From the sequence record MZ311861.1: a DNA stretch of 39,091 nucleotides; one strand, 5' to 3'. This DNA comes from Escherichia phage vB_EcoP_LNA5. The translations under genes and the position numbers were made by a program. Numbering within the stretch: the stretch's first letter is position 1; each line of letters begins with the position of its first letter. Shown here piece after piece: positions 4,501 to 31,238 of this stretch. Below the pieces are notes generated by a model. It searched no databases. It saw only the letters and a program-made list of their open reading frames with translations, and had not been told where the DNA came from.

Positions 4501-4540
4501 TAATCATAAAGGCCACTCGATGTGAATGACCTTGAGTCTA
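4501..4540 (-). promoter_or_regulatory. RNase III-like processing hairpin, class A
   Basis: Minus-strand TAGACTCAAGGTCA..(11-nt loop)..TGGCCTTTATGATTA; flanks match the recalled T7 R0.5 site; 7-bp stem AAGGUCA/UGGCCUU; three copies in the window. Confidence 0.6.
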
Positions 4541-4543
4541 GAC

Positions 4544-4708
4544 CTATAAGTCTGTACGCAAGAAGTGGTACATGAACTTCCGGTTAGCTTTCTTCCATGC
4601 CTTAGAGTCGAACCTCTGGTCTCCAAGAATGTTGGACAGACAGGTTGCTTCATCACTCCACCATTTGTACATGAACCGATGGTAGCGAGCTTTAAGTTTC
4701 TTTAACAC
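4544..4708 (-). CDS. small basic protein (gene 4.3/4.5 position)
   Basis: GTG start at 4708 preceded by GGAGGA with 8-nt spacing; 54 aa; lies between gp4 and gp5 as the small 4.x genes do in T7. Confidence 0.4.
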   Translation of the reverse strand: MLKKLKARYHRFMYKWWSDEATCLSNILGDQRFDSKAWKKANRKFMYHFLRTDL

Positions 4709-4759
4709 TAATGGTGTCCTCCGTATGGTGACTTCCAATCGCACTCAGGGCATTGACAT

Positions 4760-6463
<1,704 letters not shown>

Positions 6464-6474
6464 TCACTCCTTAG

Positions 6475-6553
6475 TGGCGTCTCCACGGGGATTCGAACCC
6501 TAATCGCAATAGGCCATCACGACCCGCCGCTCTACCGTTTGAGCTATGGAGAC
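6475..6553 (-). ncRNA. tRNA-like element (pseudo-tRNA?): canonical acceptor stem, D-arm, T-loop and encoded CCA, but no foldable anticodon arm
   Basis: Minus strand GTCTCCA-TA-GCTCAAACGGTAGAGC-..-TTCGAAT-..-TGGAGAC-G-CCA: perfect 7-bp acceptor stem, D-arm GCTC/GAGC with GG, T-loop TTCGAAT. The 26 nt between the D and T arms do not form a 5-bp stem with a U33/R37 loop by hand folding. Confidence 0.35.
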
Positions 6554-18374: not shown

Positions 18375-20138
18375 CTAGTGGAACGTAACGTATGACCCTA
18401 GTCCCAGCTCGTCGTCCGTATCGTGAGTTACCCGGACCCCATTGTCCCAGAACTCAGTGTGGATGGACTCGAAGCCTTTCCGTGGGTTCTCCATCTGTTC
18501 CTCCAGCCACTCCTCAGTGACTTCACGTTCGCCTTTGTTGGCATCCTTAGCCATAGACTCAACGAAGAACTGTACACCGATAGCCAGCGCATCAAGTCGG
18601 TCATCGTGTGCCAAGGCTCCACGTTCGCGAGATATACGTGTCATCTGGTAGAAGAGAGAGTAGATAGGGTTACGAACACCATCCTTATCAGAGGCCGACT
18701 GGTAGTCTTGGACGATAGCAGCAGCGTTAACGATAAGTCGGTGAGACCCCATGATAGGCTCCAGAACGTCACAGATGCGGAGTTCCTTCTGACCCTTACT
18801 CTTCACTTCAGTTACAGCAGCAGGATGGATACGGGCCGCTACAGGCTTGAATAGCTCAAGGTACATACCATCGCCGAAGTTACCCTCAATGACGTATTCG
18901 TTGACCTTCCACTTACGACCAATCTTAGCCAGTGCTTCCATCGTTGAGTCCTCATACCCACCGCGCATACCACCAGCTTCCATCACGAAGATGTAGCCGT
19001 TGAGCTGGTACAGAACAGCGTAGCCAGTCTCATCCTTACCACGACCACTAGGGTCAATGACCAGAATCTTCTGAGTGTACGCGCTGAAGGCAGAGCCTAC
19101 AGTCTGATACGTATGGTAGGAATCACCCATGAGTCCAACGTTAGGAACGTCCTCACGCTTGTTCTGAGGGTTCGGCAACCATTGGTAGACCATTGGGCTT
19201 GACTCTGGGTCCAAGTCGGCTACGATAAGGTCACGGAGCTTAAGAGGGTACTTCTCGGCATCACTCAGGTTCGGGTTAAGCATGAACTGTAGAGCGAAGC
19301 CAGCTTTACCGTAGGACAGCTCACGTTCCTTCAGGTCCGTATCATCGAAGCGTACTTCATCAGTCGGACGCCAGTAGAAGGACTCAGGGTCCTCTTCCAG
19401 CTCTGCCTGAAGCATAGGAGCCAGACGGTCGCCGTAAGACTGCCAGTCCTTCCTGTCGCGTGGATAACGAGCGGGCCAGATAGTAGTGGTGTACCCACGA
19501 CCTTCCAGCTCACGGTACAGGGTCATCTCGTTCTGAGGAGTGCCCAGATAGATGATTGTACCTCCCGGCTTCAGGATAGCGTCGAACTCTTTTACAAGCT
19601 CTGACAGACGGTCTCTCGCAGCCTGAGTAGCAGAGTTGTTTGGAACCTCCACGTCATCGGCAATCAGGATGTCAGCACGACTACCAGTCAACTGACCAGT
19701 GATACCAACGGACTTAACCGAAGGTGAGTGGTCTGGCTTGGCTGGACCAACGTCGAAGCTGATAACCGCATCTCGCTGTCCCTGCTTAGGTTTGAGTTCC
19801 TGAAGCTGAGGCATGAGGTCGATGATTCGCTTGATGAATATGGAGTTAGCATCGGCTCGTTCCTTTGAGGCCGACACAATCATGAACTTCAAGTCTGGGT
19901 TGTTCCATAGTTTCCAGACCACGAAACCACAGGTCAGAAACGACTTGCCAATACCACGGAACGCCTGAAGGATGAAGCGGCGATTATCCCCAGCAGCCAG
20001 CTTCTTACACATATCTATCTGGCAGCGGGTTGGAACCGGAAGGCTAAGAGCTTTCCAGAGAACGAAGATGAAGAACACGAAGTCTTCCTTCATACGTGCA
20101 GTCATTAGCGCCTGACGCGCCACTAAGTCTTTACTCAA
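18375..20138 (-). CDS. terminase large subunit gp19
   Basis: Recalled collinear similarity to T7 gp19 (..[39 protein letters not shown].., ..[26 protein letters not shown].., ..[31 protein letters not shown]..). Start codon is TTG (AGGAGGT 6 nt upstream), overlapping the 18.5 stop. Confidence 0.97.
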
Positions 20139-23515: not shown

Positions 23516-23533
23516 CCTATAGTGATAGTTTAG
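23516..23533 (-). promoter_or_regulatory. phage RNAP promoter (phi17 position)
   Basis: cctatagtgatagtttag, overlapping the gp16 stop and about 50 bp upstream of the gene 17 ATG. Confidence 0.85.
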
Positions 23534-26500
23534 TCCTTGATGTGGATGCCCTGCTCCTCAAACGTTCCAAGCAGCAACTTCTGGGTAATCGGGTCATTCG
23601 GTACAAGTTCACGGAACGTGTTATACATCCCGGTCATGTAGTCTCGCTCGTTGACACGGGTATCAGCCTTGAGGTATCCCGCCAAGTTGTAAGCCGTCGC
23701 ACCAACGTTAGCAGCATAGCCGAAAGCCGGGACCTGCTCAAGGAAGTTGCCGACAACATTCATTACCGGACCACTGGAAGCAGCACCAAAGGCGATTGGC
23801 TTCTCCGTCTTCTCGGTAGGTGATCGCGGAAGGATTGACGAGCGGAGCATCTTAGTGTCCTCATATCCAGCGATGCCTCCCAGAATGTTGGCGACCCCAA
23901 GAGGACCACCTAAGTGGGAGCTACGGGACAGCGCCGCATAGCCAATCATTGTTGGGTTAAGGGCTTGCTTCAGATACTCTCGGTCACGACCGTCCTGCAT
24001 AGCGTAAGCCTTTATGTGCGCCTGAGCCATGTAGTACATTCCAGCCAGACCCATAGACATAACCGTTGATAGCGCAGCGTCCATAGCTCGGTTGTTCTTG
24101 GTGGCATTGTAGAAGGTACGCATGGTTCGACCGTTGATAGACTTGATAACGAAGTTCTTAAACTGCAAGACAGTCTTCGCTATCGGACCATAAGCCTTGG
24201 CGTCCATGTTGCTCAGCTTGTGGGGGCGGAGCAGGGTCTCATCAGCGATGGTGTCACCCATACGCCAGAGGTCCATAGCCCTTGGGTCCTGACTGAACGC
24301 CTTCTTATCCTTGATGGTGTACTTCCCGTCTGGACCACGAGTCACTGACTCACGGATTAGGGACTTAATGCCCTTCCACTGCTCGTCAGAGATACCAGCG
24401 GTCTTCAGCCAGCGGTCATCGAACTTACGCTTACTACCAGTCAGGCTATGCTCCACGATGTCAGACAGGAAGCCCTGACGTCCAGCATCTAACAGGTAGT
24501 TGGTCGTACCGTTGAGGACTTTAGTGAACGGAGAGCGTACTGCAAGTTCGCCAGTGTAATACTTGGCAGTCCCCAGAGCTGTAGCTGTACCACGACCGAG
24601 GTCACTGTAAGATCGCAGACGGTCAATGACATCCTGTTTAGACGGACGGATTGAGTCATCCAGTTCCTTACCGAAGATAACATTGTGCAGGTCCTTAATC
24701 TCTGAGGCCCCAACCTTCTTGTTACGGAAGGCTAGGTCACGGAAAATTGGGACTCCATGAAGCATTGCACGAACGTTACCACGAGCCAGCATACCACCAA
24801 TCTCCGTTAAGTTCTGAACACCCATGTAGGCATTCTTAGCGAAGAACGATAGGTCTGTCATTGTGCGCATCACGGTAGCGAAGGCCGCATCATCAGCACC
24901 ATCACGTCGAGCACGACCAGTTAGAATCTTCAAAGTGTCACGTAAGGTAGATACTTCACCTTTCAACTTACCGTCATCCCCAGCCTTGTTCATCAGGGTC
25001 TCAACCAAGTCCTTCATGTCCTTCGTGGTCTTGCCTGTACCAGCCATGATAGCAATATCGCCATTAACTCGACGGTTGTAGGCCGGGACAATCTTGTCCA
25101 TGTCCCACTCACGCAGGTTGTTGACACTGAAGGTCTGACCGTTAGGTAGGACGATTGACATATCGCTATCGAACAGGTTACGAGCCTCAAGGAAGCTGTT
25201 GTTCTCCAGACCCACCAGACCATTGATGTTCTCTTCCATTACGGATGAACGCTCGAACTGCTCGGTGTGAGAGATACCATAAGCCTTATCGTTGGCGTAC
25301 TTATCAACCGCAGCCGCAAGTCCTTCTGGAGTCAACGTAGGGTCAGCCTCTAAGAGTGCCTCGTCCACACGTTTCTTGACTTCAGGTCGAGACGCATAGC
25401 TGGTCAACCATGACTTCTTGATGGCCTCCTGTAGTGCCTCTGGACTCCCAAGCTCCTTGATGTACAGCTCCTTCATCTGGTTGCTATACACATGCGGGAC
25501 GTATGTTCCCTTGAAGCGGCTACCCGGAAAGATAGACTGAGCGTCTGGGCGACCAAACATCGCCGGGTTCTCCATCATCTCACGCTTGGCGTCAAACTGG
25601 TTCTTCAGCAGGTCATAGACTTTCAGTTCTCCCGGAGTCAATTCAGCCTTCAGGTTTCCGCTACCATCTTCGATAGCCATAGACACGCGCTGATAGATGT
25701 CTTGACGGAATGCGCCAGAGTCTCGCCAGAATGCTGTCTGGAAGTACGGGTCCTTTAGTGCCTCAGTAACCGCATCGTCGATGTCATTGTAGAACCGATG
25801 GTCCACAGCACGAAGTCTCTCGAATACGTCTGACGCAGTTGTCCCTATTTTACCTGAGGCCCCAGACTGCATACCAGTCGGTGAACGTACTAAGTCAGCA
25901 GCTACTCCACGAATCTCAGGGTTCTCGGACCGAAGCAGCTTCAGGCCAATCTCAGTCAGCCCACCAAGGTTCACACCAGCAGCGGCACGTTCAGGCTCAA
26001 TCACTTCGTCAAAGACTTTACGTGTCTTAGGGTTCAGAGGATTCTCACCAATCAGGATTGAACCATCTTCCAGTCGTACACTACCCGGCTCGTTCGGAAC
26101 GTCTGCGAACTTAACACCTTGATGACTAAAGGTCTCCTCTCCTTCACGGATTGGCATACGCGACAGGTCCTGACCATCAACATTACGTGCAGTCTCACGG
26201 GCTTCCAGACGTGTGGCTGGTCCGGCGAACTCGTTGGTTGACTTGCCTAAGGCCTTGCCGATAGCGTCCCCGATAGCTGTCATTCCCCCACCGAAGAGAG
26301 CACCGCCCATAATTGCCTCAGCCACATGAGCGTCCCCACCAGCAACTGAGGTTCGAGCAATCTCGGATGCCCCAGCCATAGCACCAGACTGAGCAGCCAC
26401 AGTGAACATCTTGTTGACTAGCTTCCCACCTTTACCTACCTGCCCAGCAATAGGAACGTAGGTCAGAGGGTCCACGCCAGCACCAATCACACCAGCCGCC

Positions 26501-27417
26501 AGTTGAGCACCAGTCCCGGCCTTGGCCTTCTCTTGGTCCAACTTCTGGTTCTCAAGCGCCAAGTTAATCAGCTCAGTCAGGTTCTGAGGGGAACCACCAG
26601 TGATGACTCCGTAATACTGAGGCAGAACCCCAGCGTTACGAATCTGGTCCAGCTCCTCACGAGACCACTTATGGTTATTCCATCGGGTTGGGTTGAACAC
26701 ATCGCCAATGACATCCAGTGAGTCCTCAGTCTGACCAGCTCTGATAGCCACGCCGACCATAGAGTTCTTCACTTCAGCTTCTGTAGCCGCACCGAAACCG
26801 AACCACGTAGAGCGATCCTCTCGTTCCTGCATGGTCTCGCCAGTAGCCTTATAGAACATCTCACCGAACGATTCGTTGGGAGCTTCAGGTGCTTGACCCT
26901 CAATGTTTAGACCAGCAGCGGTCGGAAGGTTCTCACCCAGAGCTACTTTAGGTTTAGCCTTGAGTCCTTCCGTGAGTGCGTCAAATACGTTAGCGCTTAC
27001 TGGTGGAGTCTTTGGGCTAATGCCATTGAGTGCTCGTGCGACTCCCTTCTGATAGACTTCAGGGTCGTACCGTGAGCCTGTCTCATGGTAGCCGATAGCC
27101 TCAGACAGAGAGGCGAGGACATCAGGGTTCGTCAGGTCGATACTTTGTGTTGCCGGGATGCCCGTAGCCGAAGCCACTGACTGAATGTACGCCTGAGTGT
27201 CGTTCTCGTTAGGCGGTGCCCAGCGGGTGATAATCTTCTCGATAGAGTCATAACCTTGGCGACCATAGCTTTGAAGGTTTTTAGCTAAGGCTCGGACCCC
27301 AGATTCAGGACTATCGAAGATAACGAACGCACCATCATCACCTATAGCACCTTCCCATTGGTCTTTGGACTTACGGAGGTTCCCGGGGTTTGAGTTCCTT
27401 ACTCCACGTGTTGCCAT
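23530..27417 (-). CDS. internal virion protein D gp16 with non-T7 N-terminal domain
   Basis: 1295 aa; from about residue 200 onward collinear with recalled T7 gp16 (..TWFGF..A.EAE..NS.., ..GVDPL.YVP..G.., ..RLEARETARN.., ..DLVRSPTGMQSGASGK.., ..AMDLWR.., C-terminal ..NDP.TQ.L.L..); N-terminal about 130 aa (MATRGVRNSNPGNLRKSKDQWEGA..WAPPNENDT..) differ from the recalled T7 transglycosylase domain; GAGGAG upstream. Confidence 0.93.
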   Translation of the reverse strand: MATRGVRNSNPGNLRKSKDQWEGAIGDDGAFVIFDSPESGVRALAKNLQSYGRQGYDSIEKIITRWAPPNENDTQAYIQSVASATGIPATQSIDLTNPDVLASLSEAIGYHETGSRYDPEVYQKGVARALNGISPKTPPVSANVFDALTEGLKAKPKVALGENLPTAAGLNIEGQAPEAPNESFGEMFYKATGETMQEREDRSTWFGFGAATEAEVKNSMVGVAIRAGQTEDSLDVIGDVFNPTRWNNHKWSREELDQIRNAGVLPQYYGVITGGSPQNLTELINLALENQKLDQEKAKAGTGAQLAAGVIGAGVDPLTYVPIAGQVGKGGKLVNKMFTVAAQSGAMAGASEIARTSVAGGDAHVAEAIMGGALFGGGMTAIGDAIGKALGKSTNEFAGPATRLEARETARNVDGQDLSRMPIREGEETFSHQGVKFADVPNEPGSVRLEDGSILIGENPLNPKTRKVFDEVIEPERAAAGVNLGGLTEIGLKLLRSENPEIRGVAADLVRSPTGMQSGASGKIGTTASDVFERLRAVDHRFYNDIDDAVTEALKDPYFQTAFWRDSGAFRQDIYQRVSMAIEDGSGNLKAELTPGELKVYDLLKNQFDAKREMMENPAMFGRPDAQSIFPGSRFKGTYVPHVYSNQMKELYIKELGSPEALQEAIKKSWLTSYASRPEVKKRVDEALLEADPTLTPEGLAAAVDKYANDKAYGISHTEQFERSSVMEENINGLVGLENNSFLEARNLFDSDMSIVLPNGQTFSVNNLREWDMDKIVPAYNRRVNGDIAIMAGTGKTTKDMKDLVETLMNKAGDDGKLKGEVSTLRDTLKILTGRARRDGADDAAFATVMRTMTDLSFFAKNAYMGVQNLTEIGGMLARGNVRAMLHGVPIFRDLAFRNKKVGASEIKDLHNVIFGKELDDSIRPSKQDVIDRLRSYSDLGRGTATALGTAKYYTGELAVRSPFTKVLNGTTNYLLDAGRQGFLSDIVEHSLTGSKRKFDDRWLKTAGISDEQWKGIKSLIRESVTRGPDGKYTIKDKKAFSQDPRAMDLWRMGDTIADETLLRPHKLSNMDAKAYGPIAKTVLQFKNFVIKSINGRTMRTFYNATKNNRAMDAALSTVMSMGLAGMYYMAQAHIKAYAMQDGRDREYLKQALNPTMIGYAALSRSSHLGGPLGVANILGGIAGYEDTKMLRSSILPRSPTEKTEKPIAFGAASSGPVMNVVGNFLEQVPAFGYAANVGATAYNLAGYLKADTRVNERDYMTGMYNTFRELVPNDPITQKLLLGTFEEQGIHIKD

Positions 27418-27848
27418 GTCTTTCTCCTCAAGATATTTCTAATAGAAACCGTACTCACTCCATAGCGTTCCGCCAAGAGTGAAACCTTTAGGCCGCTGGA
27501 CCTTATGTCTCTCACAGTTTCCTCAGTGAGCTTAGACACTCCTATGGAGCATCCTGACGCTTGGCGACCTCTATTCACCTTATCCTTTATGTTATCGGCT
27601 TGGGTGCCGACTTCAAGGTGTCTGGGGTTTATACAGGACGGGTTGTCACACTTGTGGCGGACAACGTACCCATCGGGTATAGGACCGTTAGCAAGCTCGT
27701 AAGCAAGTCTGTGCGCTCCATACTTTACCCTATTAATCATTATCCTTCCATAGCCGGACTTCTCAATGCTTCCGGTGAAGCGGATACAGCCAGACTCTTC
27801 TGTTACTGACAGTTCTGCCAGTCTCTCACTGGCTGTCCCGTTCTTCAT
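27399..27848 (-). CDS. HNH homing-type endonuclease
   Basis: 149-aa ORF with HNH signature ..GYVVRHKCDNPSCINPRHLEVGTQADN.. and helix-turn-helix-like C-terminal region; AAGGAG 6 nt upstream; starts 2 nt after the gp15 stop and overlaps the gp16 start by 19 nt. Confidence 0.85.
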   Translation of the reverse strand: MKNGTASERLAELSVTEESGCIRFTGSIEKSGYGRIMINRVKYGAHRLAYELANGPIPDGYVVRHKCDNPSCINPRHLEVGTQADNIKDKVNRGRQASGCSIGVSKLTEETVRDIRSSGLKVSLLAERYGVSTVSIRNILRRKTWQHVE

Positions 27849-27850
27849 GT

Positions 27851-30133
27851 TTACTCCTTACCTATTAAGGTGTTTGCGATACCTTCCAGTGAGACATCAG
27901 AGTACAGGCCTCCACGATTCTGGATGTTGCCCTCGCGTTCAGCTCGACGCTTATCGCCAGCCGCTTTAGTCTCGACAATGCGAGCGCGGGTGTTGGCTTT
28001 ACGTTCTGCCTCAGCGTATGCTTTATCCTCAGCCTGTTTCTGCTGTTCACGGTACAGTTTGCCTACCACGTCCTTATCGTACTTGATACGAATAGTCCCC
28101 GTAGCGTCTTGGAGGAAGATAGAGCCGTTCTGTTCAACGACGGACAACTGAGAGTTCACTACCCAAGGGTTGGCCTTAATGAGCTGCTGACGAGCGGTGT
28201 CGATAATGTCTCTACCCACCTGCCACGACTCTGGGTTATCCCCGACCATAAGCTGGTGTTTGGAAACCATGCCGATGGACTTACCGTCAGAACCTTCAGA
28301 CTGGAACGTTACGGTGTTCTCATTCAGCCAGCGTTGAGTCTGCTGCGTTGCAGCGTCAGCGTTACCTGTACGATAGTACCATGAGTCCCAGACCTTACGA
28401 GCACTTGAGTCTAGAGACGTAGGAAGACGCGAAAGGTCCTTATTCCGAGAGTCGTTCTTCAACTCCTGCCACGCCTTGTCTGACTCCATGCGCATCTCAC
28501 GGCTTTGACTTGCAGCTTGCTTATCAGCTTCAATCATCGTCTGAGGGTCCAGGCCCATCTTGTCCATCTGGTCGAACGTAGAGAACAACTGAGCTTGGTC
28601 AGGATACAGAGCAGCGAAACTTGAAGGGTCCTGAGTGTAGGCACGACGAAGAGACTCGAAGCGTTTCATCTTGTCTGGGTCGTACTGTCCACGGATGACA
28701 GCAGCTTGCCACTCACCAGCAGCGTCCTGAGTAAGCGTCTGGAAGGCATTACGGAACGGACCGTTGTTAGTGTCAGCTCTTAACAATGCCACCTTCTGGG
28801 CGTCCTTAGCAGCCTCAGGGATGTCCATCTGGTCAATCTGCTGTAGCTTAGAAGACGCATAGTTGTTCATGTCTGAACGCTTGAACTCTCCTGTGGATTC
28901 AGAGACCGGAAGGTCCTCATAGTTGGTGGACACGTTGTCTCCAGCCAGACGTCGCTGATAAACTTGGTCAATGACCAGTTGCTTGTTCTGGGTCTGGATT
29001 AACTTCGTGTTCTCCTTCGCCTGTTCAGCAGACTTACGCTTGACCGCTTCCAGTAAGCTGGCTTCGGCATTAATAAGCATCTGACGCTGAGGCGTAAGTT
29101 CTTCACCCGGCTGAAGCAGGTTGTTCTGCTCCTTGAGTTTCTGAATCTGGGCAAGACCGATGGTTGGGTCGTCCTGAAGAATCGCAGACTGAACTCCTAA
29201 CGCTAAGTCTTCCTGATACTTAGCAACCAGCTTGTACTCAGTTCCTTGTGCCTCAACAATAGCAGCGTTGAAGACATCAGGTCCTACAATCTCTTCGACT
29301 GTAGCGTCCACGCCGTTAAGGGTGATTCTCTCGCCTCGTACTTGCTGTAGGAAGTTTGAGCCGCCGGACTTCTGGATTGCGTCACGGACCGTCTGGGTAA
29401 TGACCTCCCGTGCTCTCTGGTCCGAAGGTATAGCAGCAGTCGTCAATCCATCCCGAAGGTAGGCCATGAATGTCTTGCCAGACTCAGGTGAACGCATCAG
29501 GTCGCCATCGTTCAGGAATGAGTTCATCTCAATACGAGTGTTCAACATTGCTGTCTCTTCAGACTGCTTGCTGAAATACTTATTGAAAGACCCATAGATA
29601 GCGATGTTTCTGTCCGTGATGTTATCGTTGAAGCCACGCTGGAAGAACTCGTCGGTAGGGTTAATACCTGCCTCTTCAGCATAGGACTTAGCGGCATCCT
29701 GAAGTCGCTGGTGGCGATACTCTTCCATGTCCTGACGTGTACGGAACTCACCGTTCTGAATCTTAACGTTAATCTCGTCGTCTACAGCAAAGGCAGCATT
29801 ACGACCAGTCTTGACTCGAAGTGCTTCCATAGCGTAAGGGTCATCCTGATACAGCAATGTACCATTCTGGATAGCCTCACGTCTTTGCTGAGGTGTCAGC
29901 TTACGGATAATCTCGTTAGACCTATCGTCGGCCCGTGTCTTTTCATCGTCCTTGAACTGCTTGTACAATCCTGTCCCAGACTCAACGAAGTTGGTTAACG
30001 CACGAGCCAGACCGGAGTCACCAGTCGGAGCCTGAACGCTGGCTGCTTGATAGTTGACGGCGATAGTTTTACCCGGCGCTCTGCCGCGACCCATAGTCCG
30101 ATTAGCCAGAGCTGATTCAATATTACTAGCCAT
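27851..30133 (-). CDS. internal virion protein C gp15
   Basis: Recalled collinear similarity to T7 gp15 (..ERSNEIIRKLTP.QRREA..NGTLLYQDDPYAMEALRVKTGRNAA.., ..EEYRH.RLQ.., ..NPW..N.QL..). Confidence 0.95.
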   Translation of the reverse strand: MASNIESALANRTMGRGRAPGKTIAVNYQAASVQAPTGDSGLARALTNFVESGTGLYKQFKDDEKTRADDRSNEIIRKLTPQQRREAIQNGTLLYQDDPYAMEALRVKTGRNAAFAVDDEINVKIQNGEFRTRQDMEEYRHQRLQDAAKSYAEEAGINPTDEFFQRGFNDNITDRNIAIYGSFNKYFSKQSEETAMLNTRIEMNSFLNDGDLMRSPESGKTFMAYLRDGLTTAAIPSDQRAREVITQTVRDAIQKSGGSNFLQQVRGERITLNGVDATVEEIVGPDVFNAAIVEAQGTEYKLVAKYQEDLALGVQSAILQDDPTIGLAQIQKLKEQNNLLQPGEELTPQRQMLINAEASLLEAVKRKSAEQAKENTKLIQTQNKQLVIDQVYQRRLAGDNVSTNYEDLPVSESTGEFKRSDMNNYASSKLQQIDQMDIPEAAKDAQKVALLRADTNNGPFRNAFQTLTQDAAGEWQAAVIRGQYDPDKMKRFESLRRAYTQDPSSFAALYPDQAQLFSTFDQMDKMGLDPQTMIEADKQAASQSREMRMESDKAWQELKNDSRNKDLSRLPTSLDSSARKVWDSWYYRTGNADAATQQTQRWLNENTVTFQSEGSDGKSIGMVSKHQLMVGDNPESWQVGRDIIDTARQQLIKANPWVVNSQLSVVEQNGSIFLQDATGTIRIKYDKDVVGKLYREQQKQAEDKAYAEAERKANTRARIVETKAAGDKRRAEREGNIQNRGGLYSDVSLEGIANTLIGKE

Positions 30134-31219: not shown

Positions 31220-31238
31220 CCCTATAGTGATAGTTAAG
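31220..31238 (-). promoter_or_regulatory. phage RNAP promoter (phi13 position), flanked by a 12-bp inverted repeat
   Basis: ccctatagtgatagttaag; flanked by aagggcctatag (31207..31218) and ctataggccctt (31245..31256). Confidence 0.85.

Follow-up and report, generated by a model that had tools for sequence, protein, structure and literature searches.

Within the window (the whole stretch of 39,091 nt of Escherichia phage vB_EcoP_LNA5 that was analysed; MZ311861.1), an HNH open reading frame of 149 aa lies on the minus strand at 27399..27848, running from an ATG at 27846-27848 to a TAA at 27399-27401, between the internal virion protein genes 15 and 16. A preliminary description had placed the gene there, leaving the strand unstated, and had it overlapping both neighbours. 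The overlap holds on the gene 16 side, where the two frames share 19 nt (27399-27417; gene 16 starts at 27417), and gives way on the gene 15 side to a 2-nt spacer (AC) between the gene 15 stop codon (TAA, 27851-27853) and the HNH ATG. The features around the junction are:

27399..27848, minus strand: probable free-standing HNH homing endonuclease gene (HEG) of the T7 gp7.7 family, 149 aa (from the ORF, Pfam, PHROG and homologue identities)
27851..30133, minus strand: gene 15, internal virion protein C, 760 aa, upstream neighbour of the HEG
23530..27417, minus strand: gene 16, internal virion protein D with a peptidoglycan-hydrolase domain, 1295 aa, downstream neighbour and proposed target
27854..27859, minus strand: Shine-Dalgarno sequence AAGGAG within the final gene 15 codons (from the junction comparison)
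27424..27429, minus strand: replacement Shine-Dalgarno sequence GAGGAG for gene 16, from the HEG 3' end (in 19 of 19 distinct HEG alleles)
31221..31235, minus strand: core of a phage RNA-polymerase promoter ahead of gene 13; going upstream from the HEG, the first promoter met

In genomes that lack the HEG, the AAGGAG in the final codons of gene 15 is the Shine-Dalgarno sequence of gene 16; in vB_EcoP_LNA5 it works for the HEG instead. As read from the aligned junctions, the HEG ATG takes the position held by the gene 16 ATG in HEG-less genomes, and the last 19 nt of the HEG evidently provide gene 16 with a substitute Shine-Dalgarno sequence and start context; AGGAGA...ACATGGC is invariant across all 19 distinct HEG alleles. 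After the promoter ahead of gene 13, the next one lies before gene 17 (23516-23530), with none between the two, so the transcription unit is 13-14-15-HEG-16 and the HEG, having no promoter of its own, is expressed late with the virion-core genes. A scan for sigma-70 promoters and terminators around the HEG returned fewer sites than shuffled sequence and is uninformative. A group I intron-encoded endonuclease was considered and rejected, as the ORF is intergenic, genes 15 and 16 are both uninterrupted, and a whole-window Rfam scan at gathering thresholds found no intron (its sole match was one tRNA-like).

The protein has strong homology to HNH endonucleases, well beyond chance, with matches to Pfam HNH_3 (E 7.2e-17, residues 43-86, 61.2 bits, cut-off 24.8) and to PHROG 59 'HNH endonuclease' (E 6.7e-39), which bears out the clear HNH motif on which the preliminary description had made its reading depend. 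Two regions can be delimited in it:

27591..27722, minus strand: HNH_3 / His-Me finger catalytic core, residues 43-86 (from Pfam, a 50-sequence alignment and alignment to I-HmuI)
27414..27533, minus strand: C-terminal three-helix helix-turn-helix, predicted DNA-binding region, residues ~106-145

Residues H65, C67, D68, C72, H77 and N86 of the core are invariant in the 50-sequence alignment and present in the LNA5 protein, as is the whole zinc-ligand set C21/C67/C72/H77. H65 and N86, the catalytic histidine and metal-binding asparagine, align to the catalytic DH...N region of I-HmuI, and a beta-beta-alpha arrangement is predicted, with strands at 62-65 and 78-81 and then a helix at 83-92. A PDB search with the single sequence returned nothing significant; I-HmuI (1U3E) was reached only via the 50-sequence profile and a fold search, the 50-homologue profile matching it at E 6e-4 over both the nuclease and the C-terminal region, as in an I-HmuI-like architecture of nuclease core followed by helix-turn-helix. 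This agrees with the C-terminal DNA-binding region that the preliminary description had singled out for checking. The product is thus in all likelihood a His-Me finger enzyme like I-HmuI, with a C-terminal helix-turn-helix, belonging to the T7 gp7.7 family: its amino-acid identity is 97% to the EFA-1 HNH protein, 88% to CR44b 7.7C, 49% to T7 gp7.7 (E 8e-40) and 37% to gp2.8. The closest T7 homologue is gp7.7, followed by gp2.8, and not 3.8 or 5.3. The preliminary description had placed HNH genes of T7 at 3.8 and 5.3; this is correct for 3.8, which is HNH_3 by Pfam together with 2.8 and 7.7, and incorrect for gp5.3, a PD-(D/E)XK protein (PF11645). The match of T7 gp3.8 to the LNA5 protein covers the catalytic core only. 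Its statement that the 3.8 and 5.3 positions are empty in LNA5 agrees with our searches, as a phmmer (--max) search of every ORF of 40 aa or more found no second HNH_3-type ORF in the window and a Pfam scan of ten small ORFs found no HNH domain among them.

Gene 15/16 junctions of Kayfunavirus relatives, taken by anchored extraction, show that the gene is not a fixed part of this locus. In K1F, 21 of 24 IMG/VR relatives and most flank-matching INPHARED records, genes 15 and 16 are separated by just 2-5 nt, which disposes of the possibility, raised in the preliminary description, of a gene universally present at this position. Carriers make up ~20 of the ~219 flank-matching INPHARED records (~10%) and 3 of the 24 IMG/VR loci, a count that is a lower bound because the nucleotide 'distant' HEG search missed allele clade D (Ro103C3lw), which was found only by a query with the gene 16 5' end. 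Over window nt 1-24900 the nearest relative is MZ234009 (96% identity), whose site is empty; there and in K1F the two genes are 3-5 nt apart. Relatives of 95% identity carry allele A in some cases and allele B in others. HEG carriers interleave with non-carriers on trees of both flanks (neighbour-joining, without bootstrap support, from loci sampled partly for HEG carriage). The HEGs fall into four deeply diverged allele clades that share one site, their interiors being only 40-65% identical, and dN/dS among alleles is 0.08-0.30, with most copies intact at 149 aa. The upstream spacers of carriers (AC, CATA, TAATA, TAACA) are mostly equal to empty-site spacer types, which points to several recipient backgrounds; AC is the only one with no exact empty-site counterpart, the nearest being ACATA in locus L009. 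At least 24 contigs have, at this site, a copy with a 1-nt frameshift, and HC13 and Esher7 have empty sites yet a resistant-type start of gene 16. Sporadic presence at one precise site among close relatives is the behaviour of a mobile element, and the comparative pattern fits the cycle of invasion, degeneration and loss usual for homing elements. The mobile, homing-type insertion proposed in the preliminary description is therefore supported by the patchy distribution on the flank trees and the frameshifted copies, as well as by a block of gene 16 linked to the HEG:

27269..27417, minus strand: recoded block linked to the HEG, gene 16 nt 1-149 (50 codons) (from mismatch density, dS/dN and group divergence)
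27395..27417, minus strand: proposed resistant homing site, LNA5 ATGGCAACACGTGGAGTAAGGAA versus HEG-less ATGGCGACTCGTGGTATTCGCAA (from linked polymorphism)

In the three closest carrier/empty pairs (Ro103C3lw/L017, ZH4/L027 and EFA-1/L006), mismatch density against the nearest HEG-less relative is 22-42% within the block and 0-4% from nt 150; for LNA5/K1F it is still 10-27% up to gene 16 nt 300. Synonymous divergence in the block is saturated (dN 0.14-0.22), compared with a dS of 0.03-0.21 over codons 51-466, and divergence between HEG-bearing and HEG-less genomes exceeds that within groups only in this block. Carriers and non-carriers are undifferentiated in gene 15 right up to its stop codon, so co-conversion, if real, would be one-sided. 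The block ends constantly at about nt 149, which is more easily explained by a single old event than by recurrent repair, whose tracts would vary in length.

Comparison with HEG-less relatives, which the preliminary description had recommended for defining the homing site, yielded both the 2-5-nt empty sites and a candidate site at the start of gene 16. Four positions of gene 16 (nt 9, 18, 19 and 21) set each of the four HEG clades apart from the common empty allele. At nt 9 and 18 the carriers differ from all empty sites except HC13/Esher7; at nt 19 and 21 one empty locus, L026, reads AGA. The empty-type 23-mer (ATGGCGACTCGTGGTATTCGCAA) is absent from the window even at 3 mismatches. There is thus a target-site difference together with linked flanking polymorphism, evidence that is correlative, and it is from this linked polymorphism alone that we infer a cleavage site at the gene 16 start. 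The same pattern would be expected if the HEG and an old allele of gene 16 had descended together and ordinary homologous recombination had later acted outside the block.

Our data suggests that the ORF is very probably a free-standing HNH homing endonuclease gene placed exactly at the gene 15/16 junction, with intronless homing aimed at the gene 16 start of HEG-less genomes as its likely mechanism. When a carrier and a non-carrier co-infect one cell, the enzyme would nick or cut the non-carrier DNA within the first ~25 nt of gene 16, and the phage's own recombination machinery would mend the break using the carrier genome as template, so copying the HEG along with a gene 16 start (~150 nt) that is recoded and resists cleavage; this would be intronless homing accompanied by co-conversion. 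Immunity of the carrier genome would follow from the 7 differences that its version of the 23-nt site shows. In the full-text literature we found no cleavage, nicking or gene-conversion experiment on this HEG protein or any of its alleles, and no paper on the gene 15/16 site or testing any gp7.7-family protein; the Ro45lw paper leaves the HEG copy of that phage unmentioned.

The 5' end of the HEG holds one further feature shared by all carriers:

27816..27836, minus strand: 21-nt ACAGCCAGTGAGAGACTGGCA in HEG codons 5-11, identical across all allele clades

This element contains the inverted repeat GCCAGT-N5-ACTGGC, and its alternative pairing with GUCUCACUGG in gene 15 would enclose the ribosome-binding site and start codon of the HEG. 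The hairpin around the HEG start gives a modest signal (z -2.2), and the fold at the gene 16 start is no better than shuffled sequence (z -0.3). Translational control or service as a recombination anchor are possible roles. A more elaborate proposal is that HEG, recoded 50-codon gene 16 start and palindromic element together form a four-allele cassette, a late co-infection weapon that cuts rivals' gene 16, with the element acting as a low-expression translational switch; we regard this as unlikely. Exclusion of co-infecting relatives by the HEG, which the preliminary description had also put forward, is in itself plausible.

It is unlikely that benefit to the phage is the main reason for the protein's retention, through crippling the essential gene 16 of rivals or blunting host defence, with homing secondary or absent. 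The low dN/dS, the near-constant length of 149 aa and the intactness of most copies amount to strong purifying selection, which could mean benefit, and there are precedents for both kinds of advantage. The intron-encoded endonuclease of PhiPA3 reportedly gives a competitive advantage under co-infection (PMC11620839), and T7 gp3.8 and another I-HmuI-like HNH protein weaken GAPS4 defence independently of catalysis (bioRxiv 10.1101/2025.09.07.674715), so that a comparable DNA-binding role against host defences may be envisaged for the HEG protein. Against a primary benefit to the phage, the gene occurs in only ~10% of relatives and is missing from the nearest one over nt 1-24900, frameshifted copies circulate widely, and a recoded block of the target gene linked to the HEG is what a selfish homing element predicts. 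Benefit to the phage and homing are nevertheless compatible, the one not excluding the other.

Less likely still, the HEG would be a relic of a single ancestral insertion, its patchiness produced by modular recombination and deletions with no current endonuclease-driven spread. The constant end of the recoded block at ~nt 149 in independent pairs would suit such a history, as would the frameshifted copies, the empty sites with a resistant-type block, and the HEG ends, which are invariant at the nucleotide level and could be plain recombination anchors. A relic is hard to reconcile, however, with purifying selection maintained over four allele clades of such divergent interiors, with catalytic and zinc-binding residues that are all intact, and with near-identical backbones that differ both in HEG presence and in allele. 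Finally, that the HEG is a packaging-associated HNH protein aiding terminase, of the HK97 gp74 type, is hardly credible: the effect on packaging proposed in the preliminary description is its sole support, the idea having been discussed for a different, terminase-adjacent HNH gene of a related phage (PMC8861465), and the LNA5 gene sits between ejectosome genes 15 and 16, ~7 kb from terminase gene 19 (18375..20138), encodes a member of the HNH_3/I-HmuI-like group with a helix-turn-helix domain, and is dispensed with by the ~90% of relatives that package DNA without it. Membership of the terminase-associated HNH class was rejected, as the gene is not adjacent to terminase or portal genes.

The homing endonuclease gene of LNA5 is not a new insertion, because the GenBank record of CR44b already names '7.7C predicted homing endonuclease', with a helix-turn-helix, and a minority of other related phages, EFA-1 among them, also have the gene annotated. 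CR44b 7.7C (CDM21574.1) and the genes of EFA-1, PH1061, U8, HC12 and EPr2 are the same gene at the same junction, with the same 149 aa and 19-nt overlap with gene 16 and only allelic differences from LNA5. CR44b has four more endonuclease genes (7.7B, 7.7, 3.8A and 3.8B), all four of whose sites are empty in LNA5. The identification is right but already known, and what it describes is in all likelihood a commonplace selfish homing endonuclease gene carried by a K1F-like coliphage of the T7 family, which leaves knowledge of such elements unchanged. Its practical value is modest: a T7-family phage provides what is probably a clean case of intronless homing in nature, in which the insertion has exact limits, the candidate target is short (gene 16 nt 1 to ~23) and four alleles compete for one site alongside empty, resistant-empty and frameshifted natural states. 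Together with a phage pair from the same source (HC12/HC13), these features make homing or exclusion of rivals directly testable in an easy system, and where K1F-like therapeutic phages are engineered or mixed, the HEG leads one to expect that co-infections will pass on the gene 15/16 region in a biased way.

Related elements occur elsewhere in T7 and beyond. T7 gp7.7 and gp2.8, uncharacterised HNH_3 proteins, resemble the LNA5 protein in family, size and zinc-binding loop region but are encoded at other positions, gene 7.7 lying between 7.3 and 8 and gene 2.8 between 2.5 and 3, and the T7 15/16 junction has no gene, only a 26-nt spacer. I-HmuI (PDB 1U3E), the HNH nicking endonuclease of Bacillus phage SPO1, is encoded inside a group I intron, whereas the LNA5 gene is free-standing and intergenic; the two proteins are 21% identical, and C21/C67/C72/H77 are not aligned to I-HmuI residues. 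The free-standing endonuclease genes of T4-like phages (mobE, segB, segG and others) likewise lie between or beside essential genes. Their intronless homing is reported to involve a target in the neighbouring gene, co-converted flanking polymorphisms and sporadic distribution (PMC2790892, PMC2330249, PMC2988022). The T4-like cases were shown by experiment, whereas in LNA5 the cleavage site and gene conversion are deduced from comparative sequence only. Nuclease genes at boundaries of genetic exchange have also been described (PMC10448857). Hafnia phage Ca, a member of Kayfunavirus like LNA5, has no gene between gp15 and gp16 and carries a polymorphic HNH gene that also overlaps both its neighbours; that gene lies between genes 18.5 and 19 (the equivalent of CR44b 3.8A), belongs to a different subfamily from the LNA5 HEG, and appears as a 397-bp presence/absence difference inside one stock (PMC8861465).

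The window is a complete K1F-like genome (Kayfunavirus, Studiervirinae) with its genes on the minus strand. The homing endonuclease gene (HEG), reported in the preliminary description as lying 2 nt after gene 15 and overlapping gene 16 by 19 nt, was confirmed as an open reading frame, and its coordinates agreed exactly. The features of this region are:

31221-31235, nearest phage promoter, upstream of gene 13
27851..30133, minus strand, gene 15, its stop 2 nt ahead of the HEG ATG
27399..27848, minus strand, HEG, 450 nt, 149 aa
23530..27417, minus strand, gene 16, its start 19 nt before the HEG stop codon
23516-23530, nearest phage promoter, upstream of gene 17

The HEG product is an HNH protein, as had been proposed, matching Pfam HNH_3 (E 7e-17; 61 bits, cut-off 24.8) and PHROG 59 'HNH endonuclease' (E 7e-39), and no further HNH-type open reading frame was found within the window. 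Seven residues invariant in an alignment of 50 homologues (C21, H65, C67, D68, C72, H77 and N86), comprising the catalytic His, the metal-binding Asn and a Cys3His set, are all present in the window protein. The 50-homologue profile also matched the intron-encoded nicking endonuclease I-HmuI (1U3E; E 6e-4), with the likeness extending from the nuclease core into the C-terminal region. Of the T7 proteins, gp7.7 is nearest (49% identity, E 8e-40) and gp2.8 next (37%), while gp3.8 has only the catalytic core in common. These three are the HNH_3 proteins of T7, so the placing of T7 HNH genes at 3.8 and 5.3 holds for the first; gp5.3 (T7 locus L047, 16483-16839) matches Pfam PDDEXK_5 (PF11645, E 1e-10) and is by that match PD-(D/E)XK, not HNH.

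In all carriers the HEG ATG occupies the position of the gene 16 ATG in genomes lacking the insert. HEG is served by an AAGGAG within the end of gene 15, and the HEG 3' end provides gene 16 with a new GAGGAG and start context. As the nearest promoters precede genes 13 and 17, HEG lies in a late 13-14-15-HEG-16 transcript. A 21-nt stretch at HEG codons 5-11 (ACAGCCAGTGAGAGACTGGCA, 27816-27836, minus strand) is invariant in 19/19 alleles and holds the inverted repeat GCCAGT-N5-ACTGGC; an alternative 9-bp pairing with GUCUCACUGG in gene 15 would place the ribosome-binding site and start codon inside the paired structure (z -2.2). The stretch may control translation, or it may anchor recombination.

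The insertion is polymorphic and far from universal at this position. Among 24 IMG/VR loci recovered via the gp15 C-terminus, 21 have just 2-5 nt between genes 15 and 16 and three carry HEG; the K1F junction reads gene 15 TAA, CATA, gene 16 ATG. Most of the approximately 219 INPHARED records matching the HEG flanks likewise lack the gene, with a full-length close copy in 16 and a diverged copy in six more rows (four phages, two listed twice); a further diverged allele, that of Ro103C3lw, was recovered only indirectly. The 19 distinct alleles, every one of 149 aa, fall into four clades:

clade A, the window, EFA-1, CR44b
clade B, CHRF_10022, ST20, SD6 (~80% aa identity to the window)
clade C, GA2A, Pipis, TM1, Ro45lw (~58%)
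clade D, Ro103C3lw (56%)

The closest relative over window nt 1-24900, Escherichia phage vB_EcoP-22664BS1 (MZ234009; 96% identity, 94% of 24.9 kb), has an empty site, and among relatives at ~95% identity MZ234021 has allele A and MZ234011 has allele B. When gene 15 (last 760 nt) and gene 16 (nt 201-1400) were each used for a neighbour-joining tree, carriers were interspersed with non-carriers, and HEG allele types were out of step with their flanks. Carrier spacers are AC, CATA, TAATA and TAACA; the last three recur at empty sites, AC being without exact counterpart there, and this largely shared set of spacers suggests several recipient backgrounds.

The opening ~150 nt of gene 16 are the only part in which carriers differ from non-carriers more than members of either group differ among themselves; gene 15 showed no such excess. 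In three pairs with near-identical flanks (Ro103C3lw/L017, ZH4/L027 and EFA-1/L006), mismatch density is 22-42% over gene 16 nt 1-149 and 0-4% from nt 150; dS is saturated in codons 1-50 (dN 0.14-0.22) and 0.03-0.21 in codons 51-466 (dN 0.002-0.02). The common empty allele starts ATG GCG ACT CGT GGT ATT CGC, and nt 9, 18, 19 and 21 are changed in all carriers of the four clades (e.g., ATG GCA ACA CGT GGA GTA AGG); no match to the empty-type 23-mer occurs in the window at up to 3 mismatches. HC13 (L042) and Esher7 (L043) have an empty site (junction ~1195-1201), yet their gene 16 opens with 150 nt of the carrier type, putatively resistant, and their spacer is TAATA, as in HC12 and EPr2; HC13 and the carrier HC12 come from one sewage source and differ by ~2% in gene 15. 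This state reflects either precise HEG loss or a resistant allele predating the insertion.

The sporadic carriers, interleaved trees and linked gene 16 block fit the mobile homing-type insertion first proposed, and these features are what would be expected if HEG, as is probable, is a free-standing homing endonuclease gene that spreads by intronless homing. Judging from the sequence comparisons, the enzyme would cut or nick a sensitive gene 16 start in a co-infecting genome without HEG, and repair by recombination with the carrier genome would copy in HEG and the adjacent resistant block by gene conversion. That the gene 16 start is the specific target we rate at even odds, lower than the overall reading, because the constant block end at ~nt 149 and the undifferentiated gene 15 could just as well result from a single old import with later crossovers beyond the diverged block.

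Pairwise dN/dS among alleles is 0.08-0.30. Allele interiors share just 40-65% nucleotide identity between a near-invariant first ~33 nt and last ~30 nt. The purifying selection that these dN/dS values indicate is also compatible with a benefit to the phage, through interference competition (precedent in PMC11620839) or a DNA-binding anti-defence activity of the kind reported for T7 gp3.8; benefit and homing are not mutually exclusive. At least 24 assembled contigs of ~39 kb (e.g., L049-L051, 1501-1930; ENA contigs of ~39.1 kb) have a frameshifted HEG at this junction, in which a 1-nt deletion in GATAAGGTG cuts the protein to 90 aa and leaves the HTH part readable in another frame. With its catalytic residues intact and selection seen in all four clades, HEG is less likely to be a non-mobile relic. 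The suggested effect on packaging was rejected on position, family and distribution, and an intron-encoded gene because the frame lies between genes and an Rfam scan of the window detected no intron.

Free-standing HNH endonuclease genes beside essential phage genes, with co-conversion, are described in T4-like and other phages (PMC2790892, PMC2988022, PMC10448857); no paper analysing this gene 15/16 site was found in the literature searched. In Citrobacter phage CR44b this 450-nt gene likewise overlaps gene 16 by 19 nt; it is entered there as '7.7C, predicted homing endonuclease', an HTH being predicted too, and the protein is 88% identical. Equivalents in EFA-1, PH1061, U8, HC12, EPr2, ZH4 and others go by 'HNH endonuclease' or 'hypothetical protein'. 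Public annotation has covered the gene, where it lies and what it probably is ever since the CR44b record. The HEG call is correct but ordinary; the recoded-block boundary, four alleles and candidate target add a little to it and do not amount to a new kind of system. The closest protein match (97% aa identity) is in EFA-1 (L028, MT350292.1), titled 'Enterococcus phage EFA-1' and flagged UNVERIFIED_ORG by GenBank; its stated host is doubtful because the sequence is that of a typical Kayfunavirus of enterobacteria. Whereas CR44b has five predicted endonuclease genes, the window has HEG alone, and the other four equivalent sites are empty:

~4517-4760, upstream of gene 5, 7.7B
~18375, 3.8B
~20138, 3.8A
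between 38568 and 38580, 7.7

Endonuclease content therefore varies site by site within the genus. The position of T7 gene 3.8 is occupied in the window by a tRNA-like gene (6475-6553, minus strand), between a phage promoter (6603-6617) and the gene 4 start, which scores 36.7 bits against Rfam tRNA (gathering threshold 29) and is called tRNA-Thr(CGU) by ARAGORN. The surrounding 140 nt are 100% identical in LM33_P1, U8, HC12, IME278 and others, where the gene is annotated as tRNA-Thr, tRNA-OTHER, pseudo or not at all.
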